32,000 nucleotides of DNA from Bilophila wadsworthia ATCC 49260 (GTDB lineage Bacteria; Desulfobacterota; Desulfovibrionia; Desulfovibrionales; Desulfovibrionaceae), in contig NZ_JNJP01000002.1 of assembly GCF_000701705.1 (NCBI RefSeq), positions 175,210-207,209 of the forward strand. Direction: 5' to 3'. The notes under the pieces are model-generated. The model was not told the origin of the DNA, did not search any database, and saw only the letters and a program-made list of their open reading frames with translations. Positions 1 through 24,272 of the stretch are shown piece after piece (position 1 is the stretch's first letter; the number at the start of each line of letters is the position of its first letter). Made by a program: the position numbers and the translations under genes.

Positions 1-1728
1 CACCAGCAGATCGTTGCCCTCTTTGAGCGTCACGGCCCGATTGCCTTTCTCAAGGCTCAGCGCGTCGTCACCTTCCTTTAATGTGGCACTGCGGCTGCCC
101 TTTTCAATGGTGAAGGCATCGTCACCTTCCTTGAGTTCGACGGAGCGGTTCCCCTTTTCCAACGTAAGGGCATCGTTGCCTTCCTTGAGCGTCGTGATCC
201 GGCTGCTCTTTTCCAACGTGAGCGCGTCGCCGCCCTCCCCGATGATCGTCACCGTGCGGGCGTCCTCCACATCACAGGAAAACATCTTCTGGGCGTGCAG
301 ATACACCAGCTCCGCATCCTTCGTATCGTCGAAGCGCAGCTCATTGCCGGCCTGTCCGTCCGGAAAACTCCGGGTCAGCAGGCCGGAACAGGCCGCGTGC
401 TCCGGCAGCGCCCACGGCGGCGGATTGCCCGAATTGTAGACCATGCCCGTCACAAGGGGCCGATCCGGATCTCCCCCGACAAAACCGATCACCACTTCCT
501 GCCCGATGCGAGGCAGGAACAGCGCGCCGTAGCCGTTGCCGGTCCACGGCTGTGCCACCCGCACCCAGCACGACGAGGTTTCATCCGAGGCACCCTGCCA
601 ATGGAACCGGACCTTGCACCGCCCGTGCTGGTCCGTCCAAACCTCTTCACCTTCCTTGCCCGTGACCACACCCGTAAGCGGGCCGCTCATGCGGGACCGC
701 GCGAAAAACGGCAGGGGGCGATAACGGGCGGAAGCGGGCACAGCGGAAACATCCGCCAGGAAACGCCCGGTTTCGGCAGTGCCGTCACCGGGGAACGATG
801 CCGTAAAACGGACTTCCGTAGCCACCCACCGGGCATTCACCTGCCCGTCGGGGTGCCCCTTCACTGCAAAGGCGCATCCTGCGGACAGCCCCGGACAGGA
901 AGAGCGCCCGCGCAGCTTGAACCCTCCCGACTCGCACGCGTCCAAGCGGATAGCCGCGAGCCCTTCGCCGGACTGCTGATCGATATGCCCGGCCAACGGA
1001 TAGCCGAGGCAAGGGAACCCTTCTCCCGCGGACGCGGCAAGGCTGGTTTCAGGGGTCAGCGGGTTATAGTCATCCACGGAGCAGGAAGCCGCAGCAACCT
1101 GCCGTGACAGCGAAAGCTCAAAAACATGCGCAGAGGGTTCCGTGGGCGGCCCACCCTCCTTGTCCTGCGCGTCGGGAAGCCATTCCAGCGTCGCACCCTG
1201 CGGGCAATCCGCGAAAACGTCGGGCGAATCGGCCATGACCAGCGTGTGCGCGGACCCACTGTGCTCGAAAAAATACACAATCCCGGCCTCCGCCATGAGA
1301 CGGCTCAAGAAGGCGAACGACGTTTCGCCATAACGGACGGTGTACTCCTTTGCCGGATAGGTTGAGGAAAGGGCATTGCGGATATGCCCGAATCCAGCGT
1401 CAGTGCAGACTTTGGTGACGATTTCCGGCACGCTCATATTTTGGAAGACAGCGCAGGTGCGTTCCTGATCAAGGCGCAGGAACCACGGGCGCAGCTCCAG
1501 CGTATACCGGGCGGAGCGCACAGTGGACGGCCCCTGTTCGGCACGGAACACGATGCCGTTGAGCGGACGCGTCGAGCCGTCGGGCATGGGCAGCCGTACG
1601 GTATGCGGTTTGCCGATCAGCGCCGCCAGTTCCGGCTGCTCGTCAGGGTAATATTCCAGCACGTAACGAAACGGGCGGGAAAGGGCCTCGTAACCGGTAA
1701 GGGTAGTAGACATATCGAGCGATTCCAT
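1..1728 (-). CDS. vgrG: VgrG (TssI) spike protein, C-terminal end cut by the window edge
   Basis: The minus-strand frame is open from the ATG at 1726-1728 (alternative ATG at 1711-1713) to position 1. It has no stop in the window, which is why it is absent from the ORF track. Hand translation gives MSTTLTGYEALSRPFRYVLEYY at the N-terminus. It also gives the gp27/gp5 hallmark VGGDPDRPLVTGMVYNSGNP (421-480) and C-terminal beta-helix repeats of the LTLEKGNRSVELKEGDDA type. Confidence 0.9.
   Translation of the reverse strand, partial: MESLDMSTTLTGYEALSRPFRYVLEYYPDEQPELAALIGKPHTVRLPMPDGSTRPLNGIVFRAEQGPSTVRSARYTLELRPWFLRLDQERTCAVFQNMSVPEIVTKVCTDAGFGHIRNALSSTYPAKEYTVRYGETSFAFLSRLMAEAGIVYFFEHSGSAHTLVMADSPDVFADCPQGATLEWLPDAQDKEGGPPTEPSAHVFELSLSRQVAAASCSVDDYNPLTPETSLAASAGEGFPCLGYPLAGHIDQQSGEGLAAIRLDACESGGFKLRGRSSCPGLSAGCAFAVKGHPDGQVNARWVATEVRFTASFPGDGTAETGRFLADVSAVPASARYRPLPFFARSRMSGPLTGVVTGKEGEEVWTDQHGRCKVRFHWQGASDETSSCWVRVAQPWTGNGYGALFLPRIGQEVVIGFVGGDPDRPLVTGMVYNSGNPPPWALPEHAACSGLLTRSFPDGQAGNELRFDDTKDAELVYLHAQKMFSCDVEDARTVTIIGEGGDALTLEKSSRITTLKEGNDALTLEKGNRSVELKEGDDAFTIEKGSRSATLKEGDDALSLEKGNRAVTLKEGNDLLV
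7..222 (-). repeat. Four tandem 54-bp (18-codon) units encoding the gp5-like beta-helix of VgrG
   Basis: Hand translation gives four consecutive units: LTLEKSSRITTLKEGNDA, LTLEKGNRSVELKEGDDA, FTIEKGSRSATLKEGDDA and LSLEKGNRAVTLKEGNDL. The DNA shows the recurring string gtcaccttcctt. The array may continue beyond the window edge. Confidence 0.8.
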
Positions 1729-1842
1729 CCAGATTTTCGGTTTTACCGATCAACGTTGGGATGTCCGGTTCTCTTTATCAACGGGTCACACGGACGAAGC
1801 GCGACTTTCATATACAAATGTGACTCGGAAAACGGCAAGGCG

Positions 1843-2382
1843 TCAAGTTTTACCCTTACTCAGCGCTGCAACGAATCTATCCTTGGCCGTAGGCGGCGTG
1901 GGTGTAGGCGTGAGGGGGGCCGTAGGGAGGGAAACAGGGCCGGGGGAGGGCGCGGGCTTAGCGATGACAGGGCCCATGTTGGCCGACCAAATACTCTTCG
2001 CCCCAGCCGTGCGGTACGGCCTGGGCGAATGCGTAAATGCTTTGGGGCCCAGCGTGGGATCAGCCTCCCATGCGGGCATCAGCTCCGTAACAAGCGGAAA
2101 GGCAGAACTCTCGGACCTGCAAAAACAAAAATCCTCATGTATGTTATTGTAATAACTTTTTGTACTAAAAAAATCCGGAGGTGCCGTAATCGGTTTGTAG
2201 GCTACCGAAAGCTCGTGCCAGCAGGTAGAATTGCTCGTCAACTCTTTTGCGAAGCAAATCTCACCAACGATGTCATAAACAACAAAATAATGATCAGGAG
2301 GGCCTGTTATCCCAAGGGGATTACCGTCAAAACCAAAAAAAATTGCGTTCGACAAATAGTAAACATCTCCTATATCAGGCAT
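1843..2382 (-). CDS. Hypothetical protein (179 aa), no recognised domain; sits in the tssG-vgrG slot
   Basis: ORF from the track. Its ATG lies 4 nt after the tssG stop, and a GAGGAG sits 11 nt upstream. The first ~85 codons are conspicuously AT-rich (TTT, AAT, GAT, TAT codons), unlike the neighbouring genes. The C-terminal part is GC-rich and Pro/Thr/Ala-rich (PAPSPGPVSLPTAPLTPTPTPPTA). Coding status of the 3' half is uncertain. Confidence 0.4.
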   Translation of the reverse strand: MPDIGDVYYLSNAIFFGFDGNPLGITGPPDHYFVVYDIVGEICFAKELTSNSTCWHELSVAYKPITAPPDFFSTKSYYNNIHEDFCFCRSESSAFPLVTELMPAWEADPTLGPKAFTHSPRPYRTAGAKSIWSANMGPVIAKPAPSPGPVSLPTAPLTPTPTPPTAKDRFVAALSKGKT

Positions 2383-2386: not shown

Positions 2387-3313
2387 TCACCCGCTCCTCG
2401 TAAAATTATTCAGTATCACCTCACACCCCACGTCCCCCAGATACCAGCGGACCAGTGCAAGCAGGTCGGCGCGGCACGTTCCGGCGGGAGGGGGTAGAAA
2501 CATCCGGCGCTGTGCCTCCGTCAGCGGGCCGAGGCGCAGGATGATCCCCGCCGAAGCGTCAAAAACCCGGCTTCCGAGCAGGGCCGTGCTTCCGAGCCGC
2601 GCATTGCCCGCATCCCTTCCGCCAAGGCGGGTGAGAGCCTCCTCGGGCAGATCGACCCATGCGCCGTGGAACGGTTCCACGCGGGCTTCAACCCCAAAGG
2701 CCGCCTTCACCAGCTTTTCCAACCCCGCCGCGGATCGCGGCTGCCGGGCCCATACGGCCGCGCAGGACCGGAACAGCGCGGCGGGCACGTCTCCCCTCCC
2801 AGCCACCGGGCCGGGCATGGGCACATCCCGCGCCCGCTCTCCCGTATTGGGAAGGCCGGAAACCGCCTCCAGGAACGCGGCGAAGGGGTGAGCCTCCGGC
2901 AGGCCGTCAGCCCGCAGTTCCGGGCACAACGACGACGCCATATCCCGCCACAGATGCAGGATCCTGTTGTGGAACAGATCCAGAAACTCCTGAAATGCCG
3001 GGTCCCCGGCCCGCATCCGCTCCCGCACCAGCAAGGCCACATGCGGCGGCAACGGCCCATCCATGCCCGCCAGCCCAAGCAGATTCACATCAAGGCGCGG
3101 AGCCCCGCCCTCCGGGAAGGCCACGCCGCGGACCACCCCAGCAGGGATGCTGTCCGAAGCCGGGACGCCCCAGTCCATGCGGCCTTTCCATGCCTCAAGA
3201 ATCGCACCCGCCTGCCAGACGTCGAAACGCCACGGCGCGGACCGGAAGCGCGACAGGGCATCGCCGTCTAGATCAGCGGAAGCGCGCCGGATCGCAGAGG
3301 CCATCTGTGCCAC
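2387..3313 (-). CDS. tssG: TssG (ImpH/VasB family) baseplate subunit
   Basis: 308-aa ORF. It carries the N-terminal WRFDVWQAGAILE motif (FDFFQAVRLLE type) and LLGLAGMDGPLPPHV (LLGLxGPNGPLP type). It lies directly downstream of tssF. Confidence 0.85.
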   Translation of the reverse strand: MAQMASAIRRASADLDGDALSRFRSAPWRFDVWQAGAILEAWKGRMDWGVPASDSIPAGVVRGVAFPEGGAPRLDVNLLGLAGMDGPLPPHVALLVRERMRAGDPAFQEFLDLFHNRILHLWRDMASSLCPELRADGLPEAHPFAAFLEAVSGLPNTGERARDVPMPGPVAGRGDVPAALFRSCAAVWARQPRSAAGLEKLVKAAFGVEARVEPFHGAWVDLPEEALTRLGGRDAGNARLGSTALLGSRVFDASAGIILRLGPLTEAQRRMFLPPPAGTCRADLLALVRWYLGDVGCEVILNNFTRSG

Positions 3314-5067
3314 GTCCCTTTACGGTTACAGGTTTTCAGCACAAGCTGCGTAAACGTGTTGATTCCGGCGTACAGCCCGAAGAACACGTCGAGGACCTCC
3401 GCGAACAGAAACGCGCTGCCTCCGGTGAAGGCGTCCTCGTCGAGCGTGAGCGTCAGCCGGGTTCCCCTCGCCGCACAGCCCGGAGCGGAGCGCAAGGGAC
3501 GAATGAGCGGCTTGGCACACAACCCGTTCACGCCGGCGATCTGGCGCTGCGCAAAAGCGTCGCGCGGAGGCGCGTACAGGCGGAGCAGTTCACGCAGGAC
3601 ATTGTCGGCATCCGGCCCGCTCAAAGAAAGTTGATGGAGGCTGAGATGGGAAACGAGCTTCCACAGTTCGCCGCCGAACATGGGCGGATCGTGCTGTTGC
3701 GAAGGAGGGCCGCAGAAGCGGATAGCCGCCGTGGGCATGTCCGTATCCCGCGTCAGTTCGCCCTGACGCCAGCGCTCGGCGGCACGGTGGCGGTTCGTGC
3801 ACAATACCCGCGCGGAAGCCACCCAAGGCCGAGCCGTCTCCGGGCGGAACCCCGCTTCCTTGAAATGCAGAAACACGTCCGTCCCTATGCCGTCCAAAGA
3901 TGGCTTCCTGCGCAGGAACCACATCAGGGACGGCGGCGCATCCCCTTCTCCTGAAAGAGAAAAATACGGCATAACCGAAGAACGTTCCCCTCCCTCCAAA
4001 GCGTCCACAGCGATCACGGAATGGACTTCCGTACTGTCCCGGTGCCGCAGATCCGGCACGAGCAGGTGTCCCGAGCGCTCGTGATCCACCCGGATGGGTT
4101 CCGCCATGCGCTCGAACAAGTTGACCACAGGTACGGCGCAGGTGCGGAACAATCTTGAGGAAACCGTTTTCGGCGGCGGCGCGTCCACGGGGAACAGGAG
4201 ATCGAAGCCTGGCAAATCCCCGAGTTCCCGCCGACGTTCCAGCCCGAACACCTCCCAGAACAGCAGGTGTTCGGGATAGGCAAAATACTCCTGCAGCAAC
4301 TGGTATCCGGGCAGAGCGTAGGCGGATTCGGGGAACAGACGCCCGCCCGGCTCCAAGCCCGCATGACACAGGGCCTCCCGGCCAAGGGAGAGCGCCCTGG
4401 GCTTTGCGGCCCCGGCGTCGTCCGCGAGAAAGACATCCTTACACGCGCCGTGCACCCATTCGTGCATGGGAAAAGTCGCAAACCGATCACCGCCAAGGTG
4501 GAGAGATAACGAGGGCAATCCGAACTTTGCCAGCGAAAGCCCCGCGATACCCTCGATCCGCAGGCACAGGACACCGGGCACGCCCTGCGCCGCAGCGGGC
4601 ATCCAAGACGCCGGAGGGATGATGGAAGCCCGTACAACCTTCGCAGGATGCAACGTCAGAGGCCAGGCCGTCCGCCAGCGCAGCACGCCGCCGCGCTCGT
4701 CACGGTTGTGGATCGGGGTGTGCGCCGGAATGCCGAATCCGTCCGGCAGCCCGGCCACGCCCGCCGGATTGGGGATGAATTCCGCCACGCCCACGGACGG
4801 AATCGGGCAGACGAACTGCGGATAGAGCAGCCCGAGCAGGCTGTGCGAAACCAGCGGCAGCCGGGATTCCGCGTCCGCCCTCACCCGGGCGGCAAGCCAT
4901 GCGAACGACTCCAGCAGCAGATTAACCAAAGGATCGGGCTGCGTATCGGACGCCAGCCCGAGCTGGCGCGCCATGCCGGGATTCCGCACGGCGAAGCGCA
5001 CCGCGTCCTCACGCAAGGAACGCAATTCCTCCCGGTACAGCCCGGCGATGTCCTCAAAGGCGTGCAT
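3268..5067 (-). CDS. tssF: TssF (ImpG/VasA family) baseplate subunit
   Basis: Long ORF with a TssF-like N-terminus, MHAFEDIAGLYREELRSLREDAVRFAVRNPGMARQLGL...DPLVNLLLESFAWLAARVR. The preferred start is the ATG at 5065-5067, which overlaps the tssE stop as TGATG. The track's upstream ATG at 5112 adds 15 Arg-rich residues and lies inside tssE. The 3' end overlaps the tssG start by 46 nt. Confidence 0.88.
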   Translation of the reverse strand: MHAFEDIAGLYREELRSLREDAVRFAVRNPGMARQLGLASDTQPDPLVNLLLESFAWLAARVRADAESRLPLVSHSLLGLLYPQFVCPIPSVGVAEFIPNPAGVAGLPDGFGIPAHTPIHNRDERGGVLRWRTAWPLTLHPAKVVRASIIPPASWMPAAAQGVPGVLCLRIEGIAGLSLAKFGLPSLSLHLGGDRFATFPMHEWVHGACKDVFLADDAGAAKPRALSLGREALCHAGLEPGGRLFPESAYALPGYQLLQEYFAYPEHLLFWEVFGLERRRELGDLPGFDLLFPVDAPPPKTVSSRLFRTCAVPVVNLFERMAEPIRVDHERSGHLLVPDLRHRDSTEVHSVIAVDALEGGERSSVMPYFSLSGEGDAPPSLMWFLRRKPSLDGIGTDVFLHFKEAGFRPETARPWVASARVLCTNRHRAAERWRQGELTRDTDMPTAAIRFCGPPSQQHDPPMFGGELWKLVSHLSLHQLSLSGPDADNVLRELLRLYAPPRDAFAQRQIAGVNGLCAKPLIRPLRSAPGCAARGTRLTLTLDEDAFTGGSAFLFAEVLDVFFGLYAGINTFTQLVLKTCNRKGTWHRWPLRSGALPLI

Positions 5068-5471
5068 CAGCCCTCCGCGGCCGCTCCAGCGGAGAACACG
5101 CCTCCGTCGCATTGGAGCAAAAACGTCACCGGTTCCTCTTCGGACGCCGCATCCACCCGCAAATGCAGCCGACCGTCCTCAAATCCAAGCGGGCTCACCC
5201 TTATCTTTTTCAGGCGCGGCTCGAAACGCTCCAGCGCAGCCGAAACGGCACGGGCCACCTCTCGCCCGTCCAGCGGGGCCGAACTCCAGTCCGCCAGGCC
5301 GTACCCCATCACCAGATCCGCCGCATCCCCATTCCCACAGGGGGCACGGGTGTTGAGCAGTTCCTCGACGTCTTCCGCCACGGCCGACAGGTATTCGCTC
5401 CGGGACAATCCGCGCCCCGAAGCTTTCCCAGCAAGGCGGGACAACAGCGGAATGCGCCTTTCCTCCTTCAT
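5067..5471 (-). CDS. tssE: TssE (gp25-like baseplate wedge protein)
   Basis: 134-aa ORF of gp25-like size. The sequence reads PLLSRL...EDVEELLNTR...GYGLADWS...ERFEPRLKKIRV. It sits between hcp and tssF, and its start overlaps the hcp stop as TAATG. Confidence 0.8.
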   Translation of the reverse strand: MKEERRIPLLSRLAGKASGRGLSRSEYLSAVAEDVEELLNTRAPCGNGDAADLVMGYGLADWSSAPLDGREVARAVSAALERFEPRLKKIRVSPLGFEDGRLHLRVDAASEEEPVTFLLQCDGGVFSAGAAAEG

Positions 5472-5953
5472 TACGAAACCTTATTCGTCTTGAGATCGTG
5501 GCTGGCGGCAATGTTGCCGTCGGATCCGCCCTCTTCCTTCTGGCGGATATAGGTGTACTTGATGGTCGCGTAATTCAGCGCGATCTCCTCATACGGCAGA
5601 TCCCCGCCGCCACGCAGGTTGTAAGAGGCCACCACCACGTTCTCCATCGTGATTTCAAGGAACTTGATCGCGGCGTCGTTGTCCATACGGCAGCAGGTGA
5701 GCACCACGGAATCCAGGACCTTGGCGCTCCACAGGGCCTTGCAGATATTGGGCGAGGAACTGTCGAGATATTTGGTCACGTTCATCATCGAATGGACGGC
5801 CTGCCCCGTGGTGGGGCCGGTACTGCTGCGGATCGGCGAGGTCGGCTGATGAAACCCGTTGGTGAAATTGATGAGTTCCATCTGCTTCTCAAAGCCGCTG
5901 ATGGTCGATTCGCCCTCAATATCACCGAGCTTGAGAAAGGTATTCGTGGACAT
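5471..5953 (-). CDS. hcp: Hcp (TssD) inner tube protein
   Basis: 160-aa ORF starting MSTNTFLKLGDIEGESTISGFEKQMELINFTNGFHQP, with IALNYATIKYTY near the C-terminus. A GAGGAG lies 8 nt upstream of the ATG. Confidence 0.9.
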   Translation of the reverse strand: MSTNTFLKLGDIEGESTISGFEKQMELINFTNGFHQPTSPIRSSTGPTTGQAVHSMMNVTKYLDSSSPNICKALWSAKVLDSVVLTCCRMDNDAAIKFLEITMENVVVASYNLRGGGDLPYEEIALNYATIKYTYIRQKEEGGSDGNIAASHDLKTNKVS

Positions 5954-6349: not shown

Positions 6350-8509
6350 TTACACCGCGGGCGGCGGCAATTCCGCCACAAGCCGGATACTTGCGGTCAG
6401 TTCCTCAAGCTGGAAATGCGGCCTCAGGAAGATCACACACTTGTACGCGCCCGGATTCCCGGGATCCTCGCTCACGTCCACGCGGGCCTCACGCAGCGGA
6501 TAGCGCGCCTTGATGTCGTCCCCGGCGTCGTCGGAGAGCAGGACATACTGGCTGATCCAGTTATTCAGATACTTTGACACGTTATCCGCCGTCATGAACG
6601 ACCCCACCTTGTCCCGCATGTTCGCCTTGACATAATGCGCGAACCGCGATGCGTTCAGCAGATAGGGCAGCCGCGCCGAGATCCGGGCGTTGGCGTTGGC
6701 CGTGTCGGAAGTGTAAACCGGCGGCTTGTGGACCGTCTGGCCGCTGAAGAAAGCCGCCTTGTCCGAATTCTTGCGGTAAATCAGGGCGATGAATCCGAGA
6801 TCCGAAAGCTCCTTTTCGCGGCGGTCGGTGATGCTCACCTCGGTGGGGCACAGCGCCACCGTCTCGCCGTTGGTCTGGCGGTACTTGTAGACGTTGAGGT
6901 TTTCCACGGCCCCGCCGCCCTCATAGCCCCGGATCGCCGCCGTCCAGCCGTACTTGGCAAAGGCCGCCGTGATGCACGCGGCAAGGGCGAAAGCCGTGTT
7001 GCCCCAAAGGTAACGGTCTGGGGACGGCCCGGCGACATCCTCCTCATAAACGAAGGTTTCCACGGGATCGGTGTCGTTGCCATAGGGCAGACGCATCAGC
7101 AGATGCGGAAGGCAAAGGGTCACATAGCGGGAATCGTCCTTCTCGCGGAACGAACGCCATTCGATATAGTCCGCGCTCTGGAAAATCTTGTGCAGATCGC
7201 GTGGCAAGGGCAGATCGGTGAAGCTCCCCAGCCCGAAAAGCTGCGGCGACGCGGCACTGAGCAGGGGGGTGTGCGCTGCGGCGGCTACTTCCGCCATCTT
7301 CTGGAGCACGCCGAGGTCCACCGCCGACAGGCCGTATTCATGGACATGGAGCAGGCAACTGTAGGGCTCTCCGCCGAACGTGCCGTACTCCTCCTCATAG
7401 ACCCGCTTGAACAGCAGGCTCTGGTCGAACTCCACGGCCCGTTCCAGATCCGTACGCAGTTCCTTGAAGGAGGCGTTGAACAGCCGCAGCTTGAGCCGAT
7501 CGCTCGTCTCCGTGTTGAACACCAGATAATGAAGGCCACGCCAGACGGCTTCAAGCTCCTGGAATGCCTCGGCATGTAGAATGGCGTCGAGCTGGCACGC
7601 AAGGAGCTTGTCCTTGCAGGCCACCCGTTCCGTCAGCATCCCCAGCATACTCCCGCTTGCGGGCAGCGTGAACGGATTGTCCTCATGTTCGGCAAGGCAC
7701 GCCGCCAAACGCGCATCAGCGACTTCCCGCTGGCGCTTATCCTCATCGGGGTCTCCGGAATTGCGGACCATCGCGGCGGCGAAGGACTCGGTTTTCGCCT
7801 TCCGTTTCTCGTCCAGCTTCTTCTTGGCCTCTGACGCCTCCGTTTCGGCTCGCTGAACGTCTTCTTCAGCGGCCTTTTGCTTTTCTTGGTCCTCTCCGGC
7901 CTTGCTCACGGCATCACGGGCGGCGTCCACAGAAGCCAACGCCTCCTTGTACGCCTTCCGCAACGCGTCCAATTCCGAGACAGAGTCACCGGTAGGGAAC
8001 AGCATCTTCTGCAGGCTGGCCTGTAAAGCGTCGTTGCCGTCCAACTTGGCGGCAAGATCCTGCAACAGATTGCGGCGCTCAAAAAACGCTGCCAGCGTCT
8101 CGACGTTTTTCACCAAACACTCGGGCCTGAAATCGTCCAGCTTCTCAAACCGCAGCGCACAGGAGAACGCCGCCTTCTCAGGCTCAACGCCTCCTTCCCG
8201 CCACGCCGCACTCGCGTCTTCAGTAATGAAGCGGTCCAGCCCGGAAAGCTTGAGCGCGGGGGCAACGGTTTTCATGATGTCGTCAAAATTGTCCCGGTCG
8301 ACGGCGGCAAAAGTACGCAGCTTGTACTCGGGCACCGGCGGAAGCCCCAGATCTTCCCGAACGGTCCTGTCACCCGCGAGATCCGCCATAATGCCCATGA
8401 CAAAGGGAAGTTCCTTCTTGACGATGGCATCGCCCACTTCCACGTCATAGGTAATCTGTACGCGCGGCGGGCGTACCCTGCCGAGCCGCTTCTGGATCGA
8501 TTCTCCCAT
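6350..8509 (-). CDS. tssBC: Fused TssB-TssC contractile sheath protein (719 aa)
   Basis: One uninterrupted ORF. Residues 1 to about 200 are TssB/VipA-like (RVRPPRVQITYDVEVGDAIVKKELPFVMGIMADLAG, DRDNFDDIM, LRFEKLDDFRPE, KLDGNDAL). Residues from about 300 onward are TssC/VipB-like (LDAILHAEAFQELEAVWRGLHYLV, LLFKRVYEEEYGTFGGEPYSCLL, RLPYG, ending PHFQLEELTASIRLV). A K/E-rich segment at about residues 200-245 (nt ~7775-7912) joins them. AAGGAG lies 7 nt upstream of the ATG. Confidence 0.9.
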   Translation of the reverse strand: MGESIQKRLGRVRPPRVQITYDVEVGDAIVKKELPFVMGIMADLAGDRTVREDLGLPPVPEYKLRTFAAVDRDNFDDIMKTVAPALKLSGLDRFITEDASAAWREGGVEPEKAAFSCALRFEKLDDFRPECLVKNVETLAAFFERRNLLQDLAAKLDGNDALQASLQKMLFPTGDSVSELDALRKAYKEALASVDAARDAVSKAGEDQEKQKAAEEDVQRAETEASEAKKKLDEKRKAKTESFAAAMVRNSGDPDEDKRQREVADARLAACLAEHEDNPFTLPASGSMLGMLTERVACKDKLLACQLDAILHAEAFQELEAVWRGLHYLVFNTETSDRLKLRLFNASFKELRTDLERAVEFDQSLLFKRVYEEEYGTFGGEPYSCLLHVHEYGLSAVDLGVLQKMAEVAAAAHTPLLSAASPQLFGLGSFTDLPLPRDLHKIFQSADYIEWRSFREKDDSRYVTLCLPHLLMRLPYGNDTDPVETFVYEEDVAGPSPDRYLWGNTAFALAACITAAFAKYGWTAAIRGYEGGGAVENLNVYKYRQTNGETVALCPTEVSITDRREKELSDLGFIALIYRKNSDKAAFFSGQTVHKPPVYTSDTANANARISARLPYLLNASRFAHYVKANMRDKVGSFMTADNVSKYLNNWISQYVLLSDDAGDDIKARYPLREARVDVSEDPGNPGAYKCVIFLRPHFQLEELTASIRLVAELPPPAV

Positions 8510-8554: not shown

Positions 8555-9589
8555 CTATTCTTTGGTCATTCCGAGCAATTTTTTGATGGAGGCGAGGTTC
8601 TCCCCCTGCCCCAGCAACTCGTCGAGCAGTTCCGACAGCGTCATGCCGCCCCACGAGACGGCCCGTTTCACCAGCCAAGGGGCGGGGCTGTGCGGCTCTG
8701 TGCGCATGAGGTAATCGGCGATGGCGGAAAGGGAGGCATACGCCTGTTCCCGCGAGGAGAACGATGGCGGTGGCGGCGAAGACAAAGAGGCGGGAGAGGA
8801 AGGTGGGGATACGAGGGGATCTGTCCCGGCGGAGGGATGCCACGCGAGCACCCGCGCGTCGATGTGCTCCAGCCTGTCCCGCAAGGCATGAAAGCTTGGC
8901 GCCTGCCCGCCGCAAAGCGCGTCGGCGGCGCGGGCGAGTTCGTCCAGCGCCAGCAGCGCTTCACGCAACTGCCCGTGCAGGGAGGCGTGGAAGGCCGGGG
9001 AAGTCTGTGTCCCGGCAAGGTTCAGCATACGCCGGGCATCGCCAGCTACGCCGTTCTTGCCGTTGCCGTTCTGGATGCGCTCGCGGTGCTCCATCGCCAT
9101 CCAGTCCGCATAGGTGGCGGCAGGGACGTCCGGAGAGGCTTCCGTGATGGGCAGAGAGGCGGCCCGCTCGGCAAGGGTGGAGTCAAGCCATGCCAGCCGC
9201 GCCAGCCGTGCCTCCTGATCGCTTCCTTCCGGCTGCGGGTGCAGCCCGTCCCCAAAGCCGGAACACAATCCGGCGATCATCCTGAGCCCGCCCGGCAGGG
9301 AGGCAAAGCCATACCGCATGAGCGCGGCCTCGCAGGCCCATCCGGCAACCTGCATATCCTTGGAGCGCTCCCGGAGCACCCCGAGGGACAACGACAAGGC
9401 CTTATCCCAGTCTGCCCGCTTGAGTTCCCGTTCCCAGACCCCCTGCGGAAGGCCGGGGTCATCCTCCCGGCGCGCCTCTCTGATGGCGGCGCAAACGGGA
9501 TCATGCGGCAATGCCGGACCGTACGGATCTTCGCCAAACGGATGCAGACATGACGCCCAGTCGACAAAATCTGACTTTGCTCTGGACAT
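8555..9589 (-). CDS. tssA: TssA (ImpA N-terminal domain protein)
   Basis: 344-aa ORF with ImpA_N-like motifs (GEDPYGPALPHDPVCAAIREARREDDPGLPQGVWERELKRADW, RSKDMQVAGWACEAAL). The C-terminal end reads EPHSPAPWLVKRAVSWGGMTLSELL. It is the first gene of the minus-strand operon. Confidence 0.85.
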   Translation of the reverse strand: MSRAKSDFVDWASCLHPFGEDPYGPALPHDPVCAAIREARREDDPGLPQGVWERELKRADWDKALSLSLGVLRERSKDMQVAGWACEAALMRYGFASLPGGLRMIAGLCSGFGDGLHPQPEGSDQEARLARLAWLDSTLAERAASLPITEASPDVPAATYADWMAMEHRERIQNGNGKNGVAGDARRMLNLAGTQTSPAFHASLHGQLREALLALDELARAADALCGGQAPSFHALRDRLEHIDARVLAWHPSAGTDPLVSPPSSPASLSSPPPPSFSSREQAYASLSAIADYLMRTEPHSPAPWLVKRAVSWGGMTLSELLDELLGQGENLASIKKLLGMTKE

Positions 9590-9683: not shown

Positions 9684-10352
9684 ATGATTCGATTCTTAAA
9701 ATTCCATATTGCCGTCTTATTGGGCGTCATTGCGCTGTGCAGCGGCTGTTCCGCGCCGGAGCCCCCTCCTCCGACGCCGCCCGAAAATGATGTGCCGTGG
9801 GTCTACGAACCCGACGCTGTGGTATTGCGCATCTCCGCCGACGAGCGGCTCAACGAGCATGAGGGCGAACCGTCCAGCCTGATGCTGTGCGTCTACGAAC
9901 TGGCGACCCGAGAGGGAGTGGACAAAAGGCTCGCCAGCCCGGAGGGATTCGCCGAGCTGTTGGCCTGCGGGCGTTTCGACGATTCCGTGGTGACGAGCCG
10001 GAGGCTCTTTTCGGATCCCGGTCAGGCACAAAACCTTTCTCTGGACCGGGAAGAGGGTGTCCGCTGGATCGCGGTGATCGCCGGGTACTTCCACGGGACC
10101 CCCGCCCACAGCGCCCGGGTTGTCGCCGTGCCCGTGCGGAAAATCGTCGAAGGCTGGGTGCCGTTCTTCAAAGACACCCGCCACGAACCAGGACAGACGA
10201 TCATCCCCATACGCCTCGGCCCGGCGGAACTGATGGGAGGGGAACCCCCGCAGGCCCAAGCGGGACGGCAGTCCTCTTCAGCGCTGGCTGAACGTATGCC
10301 ATTAAGGAGGACTCCGCCGAAGGACGGCCAGAAACCTGTGGGCCAAAGTTAG
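9684..10352 (+). CDS. tssJ: TssJ-like outer-membrane lipoprotein
   Basis: 222-aa ORF with a signal peptide and a lipobox-like ALCSG|C. The body is TssJ-like (VLRISADERLNEHEGEPSSLMLCVYELA, WIAVIAGYF). It sits directly upstream of tssK-L-M. A Pro/Gly-rich C-terminal tail makes it longer than usual. Confidence 0.7.
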   Translation: MIRFLKFHIAVLLGVIALCSGCSAPEPPPPTPPENDVPWVYEPDAVVLRISADERLNEHEGEPSSLMLCVYELATREGVDKRLASPEGFAELLACGRFDDSVVTSRRLFSDPGQAQNLSLDREEGVRWIAVIAGYFHGTPAHSARVVAVPVRKIVEGWVPFFKDTRHEPGQTIIPIRLGPAELMGGEPPQAQAGRQSSSALAERMPLRRTPPKDGQKPVGQS

Positions 10353-10390: not shown

Positions 10391-10460
10391 GTTTTACCAT
10401 CCGTTTTGATTGACGCGGGTTCCCCGAAGGCACCGCGCAAACCATATTGGGAAGGCCGAC

Positions 10461-11867
10461 ATGCAGCCTCAACGTCCGGTATACTGGTATTCGGGACAAT
10501 TCCTCGAACCGCAGCACTTCCAGCAGGCTGATGCCTTTCATGCCTCGGAACGGGCGTCGCTGCTCCAGTCGGCGCAGCCGTGCTTCTGGGGCGTGGGCAA
10601 CCTGGATGTGGACGAAGCGGCGCTTGCCGAGGGGCGGATTCTCGTCCGCAGCGGGATAATGCGTTTTCAGGATGGCACCGAGGTTGTAATCGCCGCCGTG
10701 CCGGAAGACGGCAACGCCATCCTGCCAAGCCGGGGTTTCCGCGAAGCATGGACGGACCCACATATGCCGTTTACGGTGTTTGCCGGCCTCCCGCCGTTGA
10801 AACCCTATGGCAACGTCGCCGGGATTCCATCGTGCATGCGGGACGGAGGCAGGCTGATCGGATGCGATGCGGACACCTTGCCCGAAGCGCCGGGCCGTTA
10901 TCTTTGTCCGAACAGCGACGACAGCATAGCCGATCGTTACGCCCTGCCCCTTGCCACGGAAAGCCGGAGGGACATGCCCGTGCGCACGCTCTATCTTTAT
11001 CCCCGCCTCTTCTGGGAAAACGAAACCACCGACCGCCCGGATTGGCTGTTTCTGCCGTTGTTGCGCCTCACGGACGAAGGCTCCGGACCGCGCCCTGATC
11101 CCGCCTATGCGCCGCCTTCCCTCTATGTGGAGGCCAACCCCGTGCTGCGCGGGCTCGCGCGCGGACTCGAAGCCCGGCTTGCCGCAGCCATCCGGCGCCT
11201 TGAGCCAGCCCGGCGGCGCGGACTCGATGAGCCCGCAACCTCCAGACAGCTTCTGCTCGTGAATGCGGCGCGGACGCTCTCCGAGCTGCGCCACGCGCTG
11301 GCATGGCCCGGAACCGCCCCCCATGAGCTGTTCGGGCTGCTCCGGAACGGCTTTGCGGCGGCAGCGGCCTGCGTCGGGATTGCAACGGCGGACGCCATGC
11401 CCCTCTACCGCCATGACGATCCGGCTGAAAGTTTCCGCAGCCTCGACAGTCTGTTGCGGGAGATCCTGCGCGGCCTGCTCCCGGAAACGGCGGCGGTGGT
11501 CCGCTTCCGTGCGGACGGCGAATTCCTGCGAGCCGAACTCCCCGAAGGTCTGGGCCGGACACAGGCCCTACTCGTACTCCAAACCGAAGAAACCGTTTCC
11601 TCCTTGCTCAATGAGGGACGCCTTGTGGCCGATGCTCCGGACACCCTCCCCGCCACGCTGGCCCAGGCCATCGCCGGAGTCCCGCTGCGCGAAATCCCCG
11701 CTCCGCCGGGCCTGCCGCAACGGGATGGCATCCACTATCTGGAGCCCGACGCCCGTTCGGAGCGCTGGCAGGCGGCGCTGCGTTCCGGAGCCCTCGGAGT
11801 TGCCCTCTTCCCCCTGTGCGGCCCTGCCCTACCCGGTCACCTTCGCCTGCTTTACTTGAGGAATTAA
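10461..11867 (+). CDS. tssK: TssK baseplate protein
   Basis: The N-terminus MQPQRPVYWYSGQFLEPQHFQQADAF matches the TssK signature (W.EGMFL.PQHFQQ). The start was chosen at the ATG at 10461, which has GGGAAGG upstream. The track's 10410 start adds 17 implausible residues. Confidence 0.85.
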   Translation: MQPQRPVYWYSGQFLEPQHFQQADAFHASERASLLQSAQPCFWGVGNLDVDEAALAEGRILVRSGIMRFQDGTEVVIAAVPEDGNAILPSRGFREAWTDPHMPFTVFAGLPPLKPYGNVAGIPSCMRDGGRLIGCDADTLPEAPGRYLCPNSDDSIADRYALPLATESRRDMPVRTLYLYPRLFWENETTDRPDWLFLPLLRLTDEGSGPRPDPAYAPPSLYVEANPVLRGLARGLEARLAAAIRRLEPARRRGLDEPATSRQLLLVNAARTLSELRHALAWPGTAPHELFGLLRNGFAAAAACVGIATADAMPLYRHDDPAESFRSLDSLLREILRGLLPETAAVVRFRADGEFLRAELPEGLGRTQALLVLQTEETVSSLLNEGRLVADAPDTLPATLAQAIAGVPLREIPAPPGLPQRDGIHYLEPDARSERWQAALRSGALGVALFPLCGPALPGHLRLLYLRN

Positions 11868-11870: not shown

Positions 11871-12743
11871 ATGCTGCGCGACTGCTTCGGCCCGTGTTTC
11901 CGCCTGATGCTCCGTTTGCCGGATAGCCCGCCAACCGGAAGGACGGACGTGCGCCGGGAGGCGGAACGGCTGCTTGAAGAGGCTGGGCGTCTTGCGCTGC
12001 ACGGGCGCGAAGCGGCGACAGTGGAAACGGCCCGGCGCATGGTCGAAGCCTGGATGGACGAAACCGCCCTTGGCATCGCATGGGAAGGCCGCGCCGCCTG
12101 GCTAGGCAATCCACTCCAACGCCGCTGGAGGACGGGACGGAGCGGCGGGGACTGGTTTTTCGACGAAATCCGCCGCCTGTCTCCGCACAGAGCCGAAGAT
12201 GCCGAGCTGGCCGAGGTCGCCCTGCGTTGCCTCGGATTCGGATTCCGAGGACATTTTTATAACGATCCCAATGGGCTCGGCCTCGAGCACCGAGCGCTTG
12301 CCGAGCGGTTCGGCTGTACGGCGGTTCCGCTTCCTTTCCCACCCGCTCCATATCTGCCAAGGGAAAACCGCCTGTTCCGGCATGTCGGGCCTCTGCTGAC
12401 GGGGCTTTTCGCCGTATTGCTGCTGATCTTTTGGGGCATATGGCAACATCGGCTGAACCGGGAGTATACCGGGAGCCCACAAGTTCCCGCCGTGAGTGCG
12501 GTACATCCCGCAAGCGATAGCCCGCGAACGGGCGGCGCGCGATCCGCCGTATCGCTTTCGTCCCGACCCAGCACCATTATACAAAAAGGACGGGAGGCTG
12601 TCGGCTCAAAGAAACAACCCATTCCCGACGTGTACGGGGAGTTGCGGAATCGTCTGGCAGGGCGGACGCCGGCCCCCGCGTCGCATGACCCCGGACACCC
12701 CGGTGCGAACAACCGTAACACAACGCCGGGGAGGTCTTCATGA
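11871..12743 (+). CDS. tssL: TssL (DotU/ImpK family) membrane-complex protein
   Basis: DotU-like cytoplasmic domain (WFFDEIRRL, ELAEVALRCLGFGFRGHFY) followed by one TM helix (LLTGLFAVLLLIFWGIW). The tail of about 100 aa is low-complexity, and no OmpA/peptidoglycan-binding domain is seen. The stop overlaps the tssM ATG as ATGA. Confidence 0.75.
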   Translation: MLRDCFGPCFRLMLRLPDSPPTGRTDVRREAERLLEEAGRLALHGREAATVETARRMVEAWMDETALGIAWEGRAAWLGNPLQRRWRTGRSGGDWFFDEIRRLSPHRAEDAELAEVALRCLGFGFRGHFYNDPNGLGLEHRALAERFGCTAVPLPFPPAPYLPRENRLFRHVGPLLTGLFAVLLLIFWGIWQHRLNREYTGSPQVPAVSAVHPASDSPRTGGARSAVSLSSRPSTIIQKGREAVGSKKQPIPDVYGELRNRLAGRTPAPASHDPGHPGANNRNTTPGRSS

Positions 12744-15700
12744 GTCCGTGGAAAGTCCTTGGCTGGCTGCTTGTGGCCTTGCTTTGTCTGTTGCTGACGG
12801 CGGGCGCGTACGGCTTGGCGCTCCTGTGGGGCTGGTCCCTCCCGTCCGTCTGGTGGCTGGCGGCCATTGCCGGGGCCGGGGCGGGCGTGGCGCTGATCAT
12901 TTTTCTGTTCCGCACAATACGCGACGATACGCATGAACCCGCCGCTCCCCTGCCCGTGGAGCTGCCTTCGGAGCGCCTCCCCCGCTGGCTCCTGCTCGAC
13001 GGCGGGGGATTGTTTCCGCACTTGCCCGGCATTTTGGAAAGCGCGGGCCGCCCGCTTCTTTCCGATGGCGCAGCGGAAAACGCGGGATCTGTCGGATTAT
13101 GGAGCACGGCGCACGCCCATTGGATCGCCGTTGATTTTTCCGCGCCGCACCTGTCCGGCGAACGTAAAGGCGACGGAGGCGAAGGCAACACGCCCGACAA
13201 GGCTCCTTCCCTTCCGATGTGGGATCAACTCCTCGACGACAAGGCCGTACGCCGTTGGCTGTCCCCGCCCGCGGGAGTCGTCCTGTGCATCGGCGCGGAG
13301 AGCCTCTCCGGGCACGGGGACGATACCGCCGCCTTCATGCGCCAGCGGCTGCTGACCGTCCGGAATCGGCTCGGCAACGCGCCCGTGTGCCTTCTCGTCA
13401 CCGGGCTTGAGCACGCTCCCGGCCTGTCGCGCCTCGCACGGCATTTTACGGCGGAAATCAGCATCGGGCGCAATGCGCTGCACGCGCCGCTCGGATGGTT
13501 CATGCCCGTCCGCAGACCGTGGACGCCCATGCCCCGATGGGCCGCTGACGGCGTACGGGAAGGCATGAACAGCCTCACCGCCGCGCTGGACAGCCTTGTC
13601 CGATGTTCCGAATCCGGAATCCCCGCGCCGGGCGGTCCCGCATTCCTTCTCGAAGGAGCCCTCCGCCAGCTTGCCTCTCCGTTGGCCTCGTTCGCGGCGG
13701 GCCTCGGGGACGGGCTCGGCGGCATTTTCTGGGCCGCATCGCCTCCCGCGCCCTCTGCCTTTCAACAGGCTACGCGCCTTTCCCCGGTTATGAAGGATGC
13801 CCCCCCTACCGCTCTCCGCTCCTCGGCATCCGCATCCTTTTCGGTTCCCGGCGGCGCACCTCTTGCAACTTCTCGGGCCAGCCAACCCTCCGCGACCGTT
13901 CCAGCCGGCTCCCGGTTCACGCCCTCATCCGGGATTGCGGCACATCCCCTGTTCGTACGGGAGCTCCTCCTCGAAACATTGCCAGCCTCTGCCCTTCCAG
14001 CCACCGGACGGCGGGCACGGCAGCGGGCCGTCTGCTGGACCGCCGCAATCCTCTTTGCCGTCACCGCCGGGGTTGCGCTGTACCGTGGCGGGGAACGTTC
14101 CCAAACCCTTCTGCCGGACATGATCCGGTTTGAGGACCACCTTCCCCGAGCCGCTTCCATAGCGGAACTCGACGGCCTGATCGCCGAGTTCCACAAACTG
14201 GAACGCGGCTGCTCCGGGACCGTCCGGCTCTACGGCGCCCCCAAAAAACGGCTCGAACGGCTCCGTGCCGCACTCCGCGAACGCCTCACCGCATCCCTGC
14301 CGGAATCCGGTGATACCGACCGCTGGATCAACGATCTGATGATCTGGGCGGCGGCCCGGCCCGGCGTGGAGACGCTCCGGTTCCGGGCCCCGGACGGAAC
14401 CGTCCTTGCCAGCGTCGATGGCGCCGCGACAGCCTCGGGGCGGAAGGCGGCGGCCCGGTTCCTCGACAACGTGTCCGCATTCGCCTCCCAATCAAACATC
14501 TTGCCAGAACAGGATACGCCGCAGCACACCGGGGCCTCGGACTCGATCACGGAGCGCGTGGAGGCGCTGCGTCTGCGTTACCGCGCCTCGACATTCGCGG
14601 CATGGCATGCGGCGGGGCAGTGCCTGCTGGACGCCGTGCAAGCCCCGGGCATAGAGCCCCGGACGCTGCTGCCGACGCGCCATGTCCCACTGACGCCGCG
14701 CGATCTGCTTGGTCCGAACGATCCCTGCTCCGCCTTCCTTGCCGCAGCCGAACGCGAACTGCGTTCCGCCGAGGGCCCGTTGCCCGTATGGGTAGCCTCA
14801 TTGCGGGATATGCGCTCTGTCCGGCTGCTTACGCGGCTGCCCGGAAACGGAACCCCGCTGTCCGAAACGGCGGAACTCCTCGGGGAGCCTTCCGAAGGCG
14901 CCCGCCAAACACTCGGCAATCTGGAAACACTGTTCCGGGCCCGCACCGCGTGGACGGACTACCGCAGCGCCCTTGCCGCACTGTCCTCCGAAACGGGAAC
15001 CTCCGACGGCCTCGTACGGCTGGCGCGCTCCTTATACGGCGGGGAACTGAACGGCGCCCTCCGGGCCGCCGACGACGCATGGCAAGGGCTGGCCGCCGCC
15101 CTCAAAGCACGAAACCCGGACCTGCGAAACGATCCGCTGCCCCTCTCGCTCATGCGCGCACCGTTGCTGTTCGCCGCCGGAACCGCCACAGCCGAAGCCG
15201 CCCGCAATCTTCAGCAGCGCTGGTCAACCGAAGTGGTCGGCCCTGTGGAAGGGTTACAGGACGAAGCGCTCCAACAGGCCCTCATCGGCGAGGGCGGCCT
15301 CCTATGGACATTCGTGGCGGACGCGGCGCAACCTTTCCTGCGCCCCGCAGCCTCGGGATATGCGCCGGCCTCAGCCCTCGGGATGCGCTTTCCCCTTTCC
15401 CCGGCTTTCCTCAGCCTGCTTTCCGAAACGCCGCAACACATCGCGGTCTATCCGGCATCCTACCCTGTGCGGGTGGGGTTCTCACCAGTCACGGTCAACC
15501 CAAAAGCACGGGCCTATCCCCGTGGCCTGTCCTTGCGCATGGATTGCGGCGGCGAACCTCTCCGGGCGGATGCCTACAATTACCAAGGAACCGCCCTGTT
15601 CGACTGGTCGCCGGAACAATGCGGCAACCTGACATTGGCGATCCTGTTTGACGGCTTCACGGCGGAGAAGGTCTATGACAGCCCGCTTGGATTTGCGCAC

Positions 15701-15895
15701 TTCGTGGATCAGGCAGCCGCCGGAATCATGGAATTTACGCCAAGCGATTTTCCTACTGTCCAGCAACAACTGGAAAATCTTGGCATCACCCGGCTGCGGA
15801 CACGTTTCCGCATCGAAGGCGGCGAAGCCGTACGCGAACGGCTTCATGCGCTGCCTTCCGCTTTGATACGCAGTATACTGCATATAGAAAAATAA
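12740..15895 (+). CDS. tssM: TssM (IcmF family) membrane-complex protein with a degenerate NTPase motif
   Basis: 1051-aa ORF. It has two N-terminal TM helices, a cytoplasmic domain, and a third TM helix at about residue 430. A large periplasmic region ends in an IcmF-C-like segment. Where TssM usually carries PWYLxxGxxGSGKT, this protein reads PRWLLLDGGGLFPHLPG. Confidence 0.8.
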   Translation: MSPWKVLGWLLVALLCLLLTAGAYGLALLWGWSLPSVWWLAAIAGAGAGVALIIFLFRTIRDDTHEPAAPLPVELPSERLPRWLLLDGGGLFPHLPGILESAGRPLLSDGAAENAGSVGLWSTAHAHWIAVDFSAPHLSGERKGDGGEGNTPDKAPSLPMWDQLLDDKAVRRWLSPPAGVVLCIGAESLSGHGDDTAAFMRQRLLTVRNRLGNAPVCLLVTGLEHAPGLSRLARHFTAEISIGRNALHAPLGWFMPVRRPWTPMPRWAADGVREGMNSLTAALDSLVRCSESGIPAPGGPAFLLEGALRQLASPLASFAAGLGDGLGGIFWAASPPAPSAFQQATRLSPVMKDAPPTALRSSASASFSVPGGAPLATSRASQPSATVPAGSRFTPSSGIAAHPLFVRELLLETLPASALPATGRRARQRAVCWTAAILFAVTAGVALYRGGERSQTLLPDMIRFEDHLPRAASIAELDGLIAEFHKLERGCSGTVRLYGAPKKRLERLRAALRERLTASLPESGDTDRWINDLMIWAAARPGVETLRFRAPDGTVLASVDGAATASGRKAAARFLDNVSAFASQSNILPEQDTPQHTGASDSITERVEALRLRYRASTFAAWHAAGQCLLDAVQAPGIEPRTLLPTRHVPLTPRDLLGPNDPCSAFLAAAERELRSAEGPLPVWVASLRDMRSVRLLTRLPGNGTPLSETAELLGEPSEGARQTLGNLETLFRARTAWTDYRSALAALSSETGTSDGLVRLARSLYGGELNGALRAADDAWQGLAAALKARNPDLRNDPLPLSLMRAPLLFAAGTATAEAARNLQQRWSTEVVGPVEGLQDEALQQALIGEGGLLWTFVADAAQPFLRPAASGYAPASALGMRFPLSPAFLSLLSETPQHIAVYPASYPVRVGFSPVTVNPKARAYPRGLSLRMDCGGEPLRADAYNYQGTALFDWSPEQCGNLTLAILFDGFTAEKVYDSPLGFAHFVDQAAAGIMEFTPSDFPTVQQQLENLGITRLRTRFRIEGGEAVRERLHALPSALIRSILHIEK

Positions 15896-17511: not shown

Positions 17512-17632
17512 AAAAAAACACCTTGCCCGGCAACCTCAACCAAACATCTTTGGCGGGACACAACCGGGCGCAAATGGGGAAATATGCCTCCCTCCATCCC
17601 AAAGTTCCAACCTGACGTCAAGGGATAGCGCG

Positions 17633-18131
<499 letters not shown>

Positions 18132-19478: not shown

Positions 19479-19482
19479 AACA

Positions 19483-19575
19483 GAGGATGGAGGGAAGAGG
19501 AAACCCTTCTGAAGAGGGATTTTCCTCCCCACCCCGCCCCTTTCCTGCCCAAGGCTTTGAAGGTGGGGAGGCGGC
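19483..19575 (+). repeat. Intergenic repeat family, copy A
   Basis: Begins 5 nt after the TAG stop. The sequence reads GAGGATGGAGGGAAGAGGAAACCCTTCTGAAGAGGGATTTTCCTCCCC...CCCAAGGCTTTGAAGGTGGGGAGGCGGC. About three quarters of positions match copy B by eye alignment. Confidence 0.8.
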
Positions 19576-19685
19576 GCGGCGGGAGTCCCTATCGGACTGA
19601 AAACGGACAGGATACGGAGTTTTCTCCAAAAGGGGCAAAGAGAGGCTCGGGCCTCGGCTCTTCCCCACAAGGCAGGATTGACGGA

Positions 19686-20570: not shown

Positions 20571-20597
20571 ATCAGCACAACCTTTAAGGAGCATACC

Positions 20598-21245: not shown

Positions 21246-21253
21246 AAAAACAT

Positions 21254-21355
21254 TATGGGAACCGGGGGAAGGAAGAAGGAACCCTTCTGAAGAAGGGTTG
21301 CCCCTCTCCCGGGCCCCTTCCACCTCCCAAGACGTTTGACTGGTGGGGAGGCGGC
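21254..21355 (+). repeat. Intergenic repeat family, copy B
   Basis: Begins a few nt after the mttC TAG stop. It contains a perfect 8-bp hairpin, AACCCTTC-TGAA-GAAGGGTT (21280-21299), followed by CCCCTCTCCCGGGCCCCTTCCACCTCCCAAGACGTTTGACTGGTGGGGAGGCGGC. It shares the terminal GGTGGGGAGGCGGC with copy A. Confidence 0.8.
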
Positions 21356-24118: not shown

Positions 24119-24272
24119 CAATGCGATGCGGGAAAAAAGTGTTCCTTATGAATGAGGGTGCGGAAACATCCCGTTCGGGACATCCCCCGGAACTTTCCGG
24201 GCGAACAACGGCAGAGGCACGGCGGACCCGTTCCGCCTTACGATACGCTTCAGCAAACCCAGAGAGGCTTGT

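Follow-up and report, generated by a model that had tools for sequence, protein, structure and literature searches.

The sheath of a textbook type VI secretion system (T6SS) is built from two proteins, TssB and TssC, whereas phage tails, pyocins and extracellular contractile injection systems (eCIS) have a sheath of one; to our knowledge, there is no accepted explanation for the split T6SS sheath. We describe here a gene, tssBC, found in a stretch of 32,000 nucleotides (nt) of Bilophila wadsworthia ATCC 49260 (assembly GCF_000701705.1, contig NZ_JNJP01000002.1, positions 175,210 to 207,209; "the window" below), that encodes both subunits in one polypeptide and is the sole sheath gene of an otherwise complete T6SS cluster without the ATPase ClpV. 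From the comparison of sequences we propose that TssBC is, on balance, probably a single-chain sheath protomer that works without ClpV.

One reading frame for both sheath subunits

The earlier note on this DNA had claimed that TssB and TssC are encoded as a single fusion of 719 amino acids (aa), and this holds: positions 6350-8509 of the minus strand form one uninterrupted open reading frame (ORF) with zero internal stops, in which the NCBIfam equivalog models of both subunits score above their curated cutoffs. TssB (TIGR03358) reaches 113.4 bits against a cutoff of 97.25 over aa 6-171, and TssC (TIGR03355) 610.7 bits against 271.5 over aa 262-715. Consistent with these scores, Pfam gives a single VipA match (T6SS_VipA PF05591, aa 10-170, E 2e-33) and finds both VipB domains (VipB PF05943, aa 296-594, E 1e-117; VipB_2 PF18945, aa 604-714, E 1.5e-44). 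The TssC module matches all solved TssC chains, and the invariant sheath residues are retained in an alignment of 24 fused homologues. The N- and C-termini of TssBC, which would be the handshake ends, are both conserved and are unstructured in a monomer model. The gene and its parts are as follows; locus L001, the nearest split relative found, served to delimit the tails.

6350..8509, minus strand: tssBC, fused T6SS sheath subunit, single 719-aa ORF, stop codon included
8000..8509, minus strand: TssB (VipA) core module, aa 1-170 (Pfam, NCBIfam), holding the N-terminal handshake strand region, which has a low predicted local distance difference test (pLDDT) score in the monomer model
7685..7999, minus strand: joined tails, aa 171-275, apparently the C-terminal tail of the ancestral TssB followed by the N-terminal segment of the ancestral TssC (alignment to L001)
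7754..7786, minus strand: site aligned with the ClpV-docking helix of the TssC N-terminus, aa 242-252, SFAAAMVRNSG, without LLDEII
6350..7684, minus strand: TssC (VipB + VipB_2) core module, aa 276-719 plus stop codon, holding the C-terminal handshake strands (Pfam, NCBIfam)

The frame is reproducible and appears to be under selection

In split relatives tssB and tssC overlap by ATGA, so that a 1-nt error could mimic a fusion, and an assembly or sequencing indel might in principle have merged two genes. We consider this explanation practically untenable. Indeed, the exact protein (WP_029434554.1) was found on 15 contigs, its 90%-identity cluster contains 934 member sequences, and one 722-aa allele of that cluster occurs on 201 contigs (NCBI, ENA, Logan). 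Six independent assemblies, which refute the artefact, carry the same fused gene in the same neighbourhood, diverged alleles (72-90% identity) are fused too, and homopolymers in the junction DNA reach 4 nt at most. The assembly indel against which the earlier note had advised a check is thus excluded.

The indels that separate Desulfovibrionaceae alleles between the two cores are all in frame (+3, -1, +5 and -47 aa), in a tail region whose identity goes down to 36-45% while the TssC core stays at 83-100% (96-100% within the species group, 83-84% at genus-level divergence). At the ancestral TssC start of Bilophila we found no convincing combination of a Shine-Dalgarno (SD) sequence and a start codon; the only in-frame ATG of the tails, at aa 247, is not preceded by an SD, so that TssC would be made only by reading through from TssB. 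The open TssB-TssC frame appears to be maintained by selection.

One ORF might nevertheless give two proteins, by internal initiation or by proteolysis in the tails, and the sheath would then be effectively canonical. The tails are indeed the kind of fast-evolving, highly charged segment that a protease could cut, and an internal SD and ATG are kept in the fusion of Pseudomonas aeruginosa PA99 presented below. Against this stand the missing SD-preceded start in Bilophila, the tails being predicted as helical and not as disordered, and the strict frame, which across such divergent tails is needed for TssC translation but would be compatible with a later cleavage. Two separate products seem to us improbable.

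The apparent linker corresponds to two native tails

In L001, tssB (199 aa) and tssC (493 aa) overlap by ATGA and the gene order is that of Bilophila. Residues 1-144 of its TssB align with Bilophila aa 1-170 (53% identity), and residues 49-492 of its TssC with Bilophila aa 276-719 (68% identity). Between the cores Bilophila has 105 aa and L001 has 103 aa, composed of a TssB tail of 55 aa and a TssC N-terminal segment of 48 aa. Because these lengths match, no linker seems to have been inserted; two pre-existing, fast-evolving tails would simply have been joined end to end. The earlier note had described a K/E-rich linker at nt ~7775-7912. Its location was close enough, the peptide SKAGEDQ...KAKTE (aa 202-241, 57% K/R/E/D) lying at nt 7787-7906, but a reading of it as an added element is contradicted by the L001 tails. 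The joined tails as a whole (aa 171-275) are 43% charged.

In an AlphaFold2 model of the monomer (24-sequence alignment, pLDDT 71.7), the joined tails are predicted as long helices (aa 175-203, 208-247 and 254-277, pLDDT ~70-80), and low confidence is found mainly at aa 1-31 and aa 700-719, plus a few short loops of the TssC core. Foldseek searches with this model recover the sheath fold and match every solved T6SS sheath, the best being 9n4v. We also observed in the TssB module an insertion of about 26 residues relative to L001 (aa 88-113, window ~8170-8250, minus strand, SGLDRFITEDASAAWREGGVEPEKAAF), which is partly of low confidence in the model (aa 100-104); this site also carries insertions in other fused lineages, but not the same ones.

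In the handshake between protomers, TssB/IglA with its N-terminal strand and TssC/IglB with its C-terminal strand augment a beta-sheet of the neighbouring protomer (PMC5924787). The earlier note had placed the TssB C-terminus and the TssC N-terminus in this handshake, which is wrong, since it is the opposite ends that are used (PMC5924787). By analogy with these structures, the fusion would join termini that lie outside the handshake, in the outer T6SS-specific domain, and would leave the handshake strands free; TssBC would thereby have the same end topology as the single-chain sheath proteins of phage type. We infer from this arrangement that TssBC could assemble as a single chain, with the TssB C-tail and the TssC N-tail directly connected in the outer domain, and that polymerisation and contraction would proceed normally through the free TssB N-terminus and TssC C-terminus, as in any sheath.

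A complete cluster without ClpV

Of the 13 core components (TssA-M) of a canonical T6SS-i cluster, the 12 other than TssH, with Hcp as TssD and VgrG as TssI, are encoded in one contiguous block, plus PAAR. With flanks taken from other assemblies, one strand carries tssM-L-K-J, with a GGDEF gene beyond tssM, and the other tssA-tssBC-hcp-tssE-F-G, a small ORF, vgrG and PAAR, followed by an ORF of 212 aa and a gene for a hybrid sensor kinase. Within the window, the genes other than tssBC are:

1..1713, minus strand: vgrG (tssI), truncated by the left window edge (mapped from L003, blastp); PAAR is next, outside the window
1843..2382, minus strand: 179-aa ORF between tssG and vgrG, function unassigned; a 78-aa ORF instead in another strain
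2387..3313, minus strand: tssG
3268..5112, minus strand: tssF (gene callers place the start 15 codons further in, 599 aa)
5067..5471, minus strand: tssE
5471..5953, minus strand: hcp (tssD)
8555..9589, minus strand: tssA (ImpA_N family), directly upstream of tssBC
9684..10352, plus strand: tssJ, lipoprotein
10410..11867, plus strand: tssK (468 aa according to gene callers)
11871..12743, plus strand: tssL (DotU family)
12740..15895, plus strand: tssM (IcmF-related), last gene of the cluster

The window and the extended loci contain no second TssB or TssC module, and tssBC is therefore the only sheath gene of the cluster. Likewise, TssH/ClpV is missing: no Clp-family match was obtained in the window or in six Bilophila loci (L002-L007), which cover ~40 kb around the gene and extend at either end into genes outside the T6SS. 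The absence of a visible clpV, recorded in the earlier note for the locus, thus extends to the whole cluster. No substitute ATPase or gene family specific to fused loci was detected in the neighbourhoods either; they yielded only a sigma-54 activator and a small unassigned ORF, neither of which is a candidate.

A decaying system, in which the cluster is a non-functional remnant and the loss of ClpV and the fusion are steps of its degradation, could account for the missing ClpV and for a docking helix that is most degenerate in the Bilophila lineage; our literature searches also found no functional study. However, the 12 other core genes and PAAR are intact and syntenic in independent assemblies, the TssC core is conserved at the levels given above with in-frame changes only, and the invariant sheath residues are kept. 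We regard decay as very improbable.

Fusion is associated with the absence of ClpV and of its docking motif

In canonical recycling, contracted sheaths are disassembled by ClpV, which binds to the LLDEII helix close to the free N-terminus of TssC; the docking motif in this helix was defined in PMC4239648, and its role is treated there and in PMC5048182. In Bilophila the docking position reads SFAAAMVRNSG and lacks the LLDEII that characterises the ClpV-recycled class (V. cholerae, H2 and H3; Forster et al. 2014), and the TssC module has no free N-terminus, as 275 residues precede it without an internal start.

For comparison we used species-representative loci from GTDB, namely the best 80 of at least 598 matches, with the fused or split state read from the DNA. 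No Clp-family gene lies near the fused loci, while many split loci have ClpV right after tssG. Among loci with at least 7 kb downstream, ClpV is present in 0/16 fused and 30/43 split ones; when TssF and TssG are required as cluster context, it is present in none of 10 fused and 30 of 35 split loci, the fused ones representing about 3-4 independent lineages, in counts that ignore phylogeny and with ClpV searched locally. Seven orphan fused loci of Holosporales and other Alphaproteobacteria are uninformative on ClpV and were discounted. The motif follows the same pattern: an LLDEII regular expression matches 29 of 31 ClpV-positive loci (effectively 31/31, the two misses being start-codon artefacts), 7 of 12 split ClpV-less loci and 0 of 23 fused ClpV-less loci.

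The exception is P. aeruginosa PA99 (CP042967.1, locus L008), which encodes a fused TssBC of 683 aa (QFZ64412.1, on 25 contigs) in an H2/H4-like i1 cluster that keeps ClpV, and whose fusion keeps LLDEII. At its junction (L008 10526-10591), a frameshift has moved the ancestral TGA into another frame, and the ORF now runs through the SD (ggagaa) and the ATG of tssC; on the TssC tree this fusion is nested among split Pseudomonas relatives. PA99 thus seems to be a young frameshift fusion, which would show how a fusion starts and that it can coexist with ClpV at least briefly, and it may still make a separate TssC from the retained SD and ATG. That its cluster is the H4-T6SS could not be shown, PMC11751169 containing no mention of PA99; papers on the P. 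aeruginosa H4-T6SS describe separate tssB4 and tssC4. In the light of PA99, the idea that a fusion by itself excludes ClpV has to be abandoned. The earlier suggestion that the fusion may alter recycling receives support from the comparison, in that the fused loci other than PA99 are without ClpV and LLDEII.

We propose the following scenario. The gene would derive from an ordinary tssB-tssC pair with an ATGA overlap, which a 1-nt indel would be enough to fuse, as the frameshift of PA99 did. With ClpV missing from the cluster and the docking motif degraded, a free TssC N-terminus would no longer be selected for, and the fusion would be tolerated and then maintained. Contracted sheaths might be cleared by ClpB, as in Francisella, or by another chaperone or protease, or might not be recycled at all.

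Several observations weigh against this scenario, beginning with the small number of independent lineages, the local search for ClpV and the discounted orphan loci reported above. The coexistence of fusion, LLDEII and ClpV in PA99 is one more, as is the ranking of the matches, which makes the sample a biased one. An amphipathic helix is kept at the docking position in most fused lineages, and some partner might still bind it. Split clusters without a nearby ClpV exist (L051, L072, L089 and L090), and in Campylobacter and Francisella, which are ClpV-less, the two sheath genes are still separate, so that the loss of ClpV does not force fusion. In addition, the structural support is moderate, coming from a monomer model with the pLDDT and alignment depth given above, and a ClpV gene may lie in another part of the Bilophila genome, our search having spanned ~40 kb around tssBC.

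This last point leads to a rival explanation, according to which the fusion is a selectively neutral accident between neighbouring, co-translated genes and a ClpV or ClpV-like ATPase encoded outside the cluster recycles the sheath through an internal segment. It would agree with the union of fused tssBC and ClpV in one cluster of PA99, with the retained amphipathic helix and with the scattering of T6SS genes in some genomes, the search having been confined to the neighbourhood. Nevertheless, LLDEII is present in essentially all ClpV-linked TssC and in none of the 23 fused ClpV-less loci, Bilophila keeps all 12 other core genes together, ClpV immediately follows tssG in 30/35 split clusters of relatives, and the PA99 fusion is a very recent frameshift that may still allow a separate TssC. 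We judge a remote ClpV to be unlikely and retain the ClpV-independent single-chain protomer as our preferred interpretation.

Distribution and origin of the fusions

The earlier note could not say whether such fusions had been described, and their presumed rarity did not survive the comparison: they are frequent in databases, where they are annotated simply as TssC, and a fusion was published in 2022 (PMC9515649). Stop-free one-ORF fusions number 21 among the 80 best matches, which is a lower bound on their count and an overestimate of their frequency, as loci that are fused or have both genes in one frame are ranked higher. Among the fusions are those of Marinomonas transparens, Thalassomonas sp., Planctobacterium marinum and Ca. 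Endobugula sertula, as well as of metagenome-assembled genomes (MAGs) of Treponema, SAR324, Woeseiaceae and Holosporales. On a neighbour-joining tree of TssC modules there are at least six changes between the fused and split states. All fusions except that of PA99 fall in the ClpV-less part, interleaved with split ClpV-less sister clades, and the ClpV-positive crown clade (Burkholderiales, Pseudomonas) is uniformly split. The absence of ClpV is thus broader than the fusion, and plausibly older. On the tentative reading given under Significance, re-fusion after the disuse of ClpV would have occurred in Desulfovibrionaceae, Treponema, Planctomycetaceae, a marine gammaproteobacterial/SAR324 clade and Holosporales.

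Two other figures were rejected. A TssC-only search in which 96 of the 150 nearest 50%-identity representatives were fused cannot be read as a prevalence, since long or merged representatives inflate it. In 58 of 59 split loci tssB and tssC share a frame, often with a single stop codon between them, which might have suggested readthrough or toggling but is a bias of ascertainment due to the match ranking: in an independent sample of four split loci, only L093 is in frame and L001, L092 and L094 are not, as expected by chance. Similarly, the first protein search put fusions on top because both of their modules match.

Seven fused tssBC genes, those of the Holosporales/alphaproteobacterial MAG loci L018, L032, L035, L064, L069, L071 and L080, stand alone; in the surrounding 10 kb, blastp detected hardly any further T6SS core gene, a VgrG match in L080 being the sole one. 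Their T6SS genes are either scattered or too divergent to detect. An ORF family of about 199 aa, function unassigned, follows tssBC in several of these loci. Other arrangements of sheath genes were also seen. In L094 (9317-12409), one tssB is followed by a tandem pair of TssC paralogues (498 and 520 aa), in a cluster with three hcp genes and ClpV; this recalls the Tateyamaria clusters with two tssC genes that are referred to in PMC9515649. Some very long proteins (P0202, P0230, P0160 and P0225) combine TssB and TssC modules with WD40 repeats or with ImpA_N and TIR, and one long representative has two TssB-TssC repeats; they are probably merged gene calls, although real higher-order fusions (TssA-TssB-TssC) are possible.

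Comparison with known systems

The closest known system is the canonical T6SS-i, whose nearest solved structure is the extended sheath-tube of Azotobacter vinelandii (9n4v): Bilophila aa 261-718 match chain 9n4v_A (TssC) with E 7e-184, and aa 1-187 match 9n4v_B (TssB) with E 7e-31. Other canonical sheath structures are those of V. cholerae VipA/VipB (3j9g, 5mxn) and P. aeruginosa TssB1/TssC1 (5n8n). The gene order is also the same (tssA-tssB/C-hcp-tssE-F-G-vgrG with divergent tssJ-K-L-M). Bilophila differs from this system by its single polypeptide, the lack of ClpV in the cluster, the loss of LLDEII and the 26-residue TssB insertion (relative to L001). The PA99 protein likewise has TssB and TssC in one ORF, but it keeps the internal SD and ATG, LLDEII and ClpV.

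A natural combination of VipA and VipB domains, also annotated as tssC, is known as TssCL in roseobacter-clade Alphaproteobacteria (Leisingera sp. ANG-M7; Suria et al. 2022, PMC9515649), where its authors explicitly regarded it as a fusion of TssB and TssC. TssCL combines two VipA domains with a single VipB domain and is an extra paralogue beside separate tssB and tssC; according to its authors, its cluster is closely related to the P. aeruginosa H1-T6SS and it was reported only in some Alphaproteobacteria (PMC9515649). The Bilophila protein, in contrast, has one VipA domain and a full TssC, is the sole sheath gene with no separate tssB or tssC, and is one of a widespread group of fusions found in other phyla.

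Clusters without ClpV are also found in the Francisella T6SS-ii and the Campylobacter jejuni T6SS, which, unlike Bilophila, have two-protein sheaths (IglA/IglB and TssB/TssC, respectively), Francisella being moreover a distant T6SS subtype. Francisella IglB has no LLDEIM helix, and the Francisella sheath is disassembled by ClpB; phage, pyocin and eCIS machines lack ClpV and contract a single time (PMC5924787). The single-chain sheaths of the T4 gp18 type show no detectable sequence relationship to Bilophila TssBC beyond the sheath fold and appear only as weak Foldseek matches (eCIS/phage, ranks 10-12). In our reading, Bilophila TssBC is a secondary re-fusion of the TssB and TssC of a T6SS and not a retained ancestral state.

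Surroundings of the cluster

Downstream of tssG (window 1-2382), Bilophila strains are not identical: L002 differs from L003-L007 by an ORF of 78 instead of 179 aa, a VgrG of 703 instead of 698 aa and a PAAR of 99 instead of 57 aa, and the region from tssG to the cluster end is probably its variable effector/adaptor part. On the other side, a GGDEF diguanylate cyclase gene (16210-17511, minus strand) abuts tssM, and the GC content falls to 0.45 at 17001-18000 against ~0.62 elsewhere; a regulatory link or an island boundary is possible.

The T6SS is adjoined by a corrinoid-dependent methyltransferase cluster (18087-27088, plus strand) with two URO-D/MtaA-like genes, a CobW GTPase, a B12-binding protein, DUF1638, a RACo reductive activase and mttB; CbiC starts at 31359. 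The MttB-family methyltransferase ORF (24273-25793, plus strand) has an in-frame TAG at 25251-25253 (YIAGG*TDS), with the next ORF in the same frame, and the Pfam match before this TAG spans profile positions 32-337 of 500. This TAG looks like the pyrrolysine codon of mttB; Kivenson and Giovannoni are said to have reported, in 2020, the use of pyrrolysine by Bilophila.

Significance

A TssB-TssC fusion is already known as the extra paralogue of roseobacters (2022, PMC9515649), which is the only paper on a natural fusion of this kind found in the searchable literature. Neither the sole-sheath fusion of the Bilophila type, its breadth and repeated origin nor its link with the absence of ClpV and of the motif was found there, and full-text searches gave no description of a Bilophila T6SS. 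The effect on the field should be moderate, the parts being all known and a related fusion published. In practice, the fused genes are annotated only as TssC, so that pipelines requiring a separate TssB (TXSScan- or SecReT6-style) may score their clusters as incomplete, and this could affect the T6SS of B. wadsworthia, a bile-associated human gut pathobiont. A natural single-chain sheath is also a convenient object for structural work and engineering.

More generally, the clustering of re-fusions in ClpV-less lineages suggests that the split of the sheath might serve ClpV-mediated disassembly. ClpV would require a free TssC N-terminus bearing the motif, and this constraint would be gone once a lineage stops using ClpV. 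We advance tentatively, as a possibility and no firmer than that, the generalisation that ClpV recycling keeps the sheath split, that its disuse leads repeatedly to the re-fusion of tssB and tssC into a phage-like single-chain sheath, and that a fused tssBC could then be taken as a marker of ClpV-independent T6SSs, possibly single-shot or recycled by ClpB. If this is true, the systems so marked would include the T6SS of a common human gut pathobiont, Bilophila wadsworthia.

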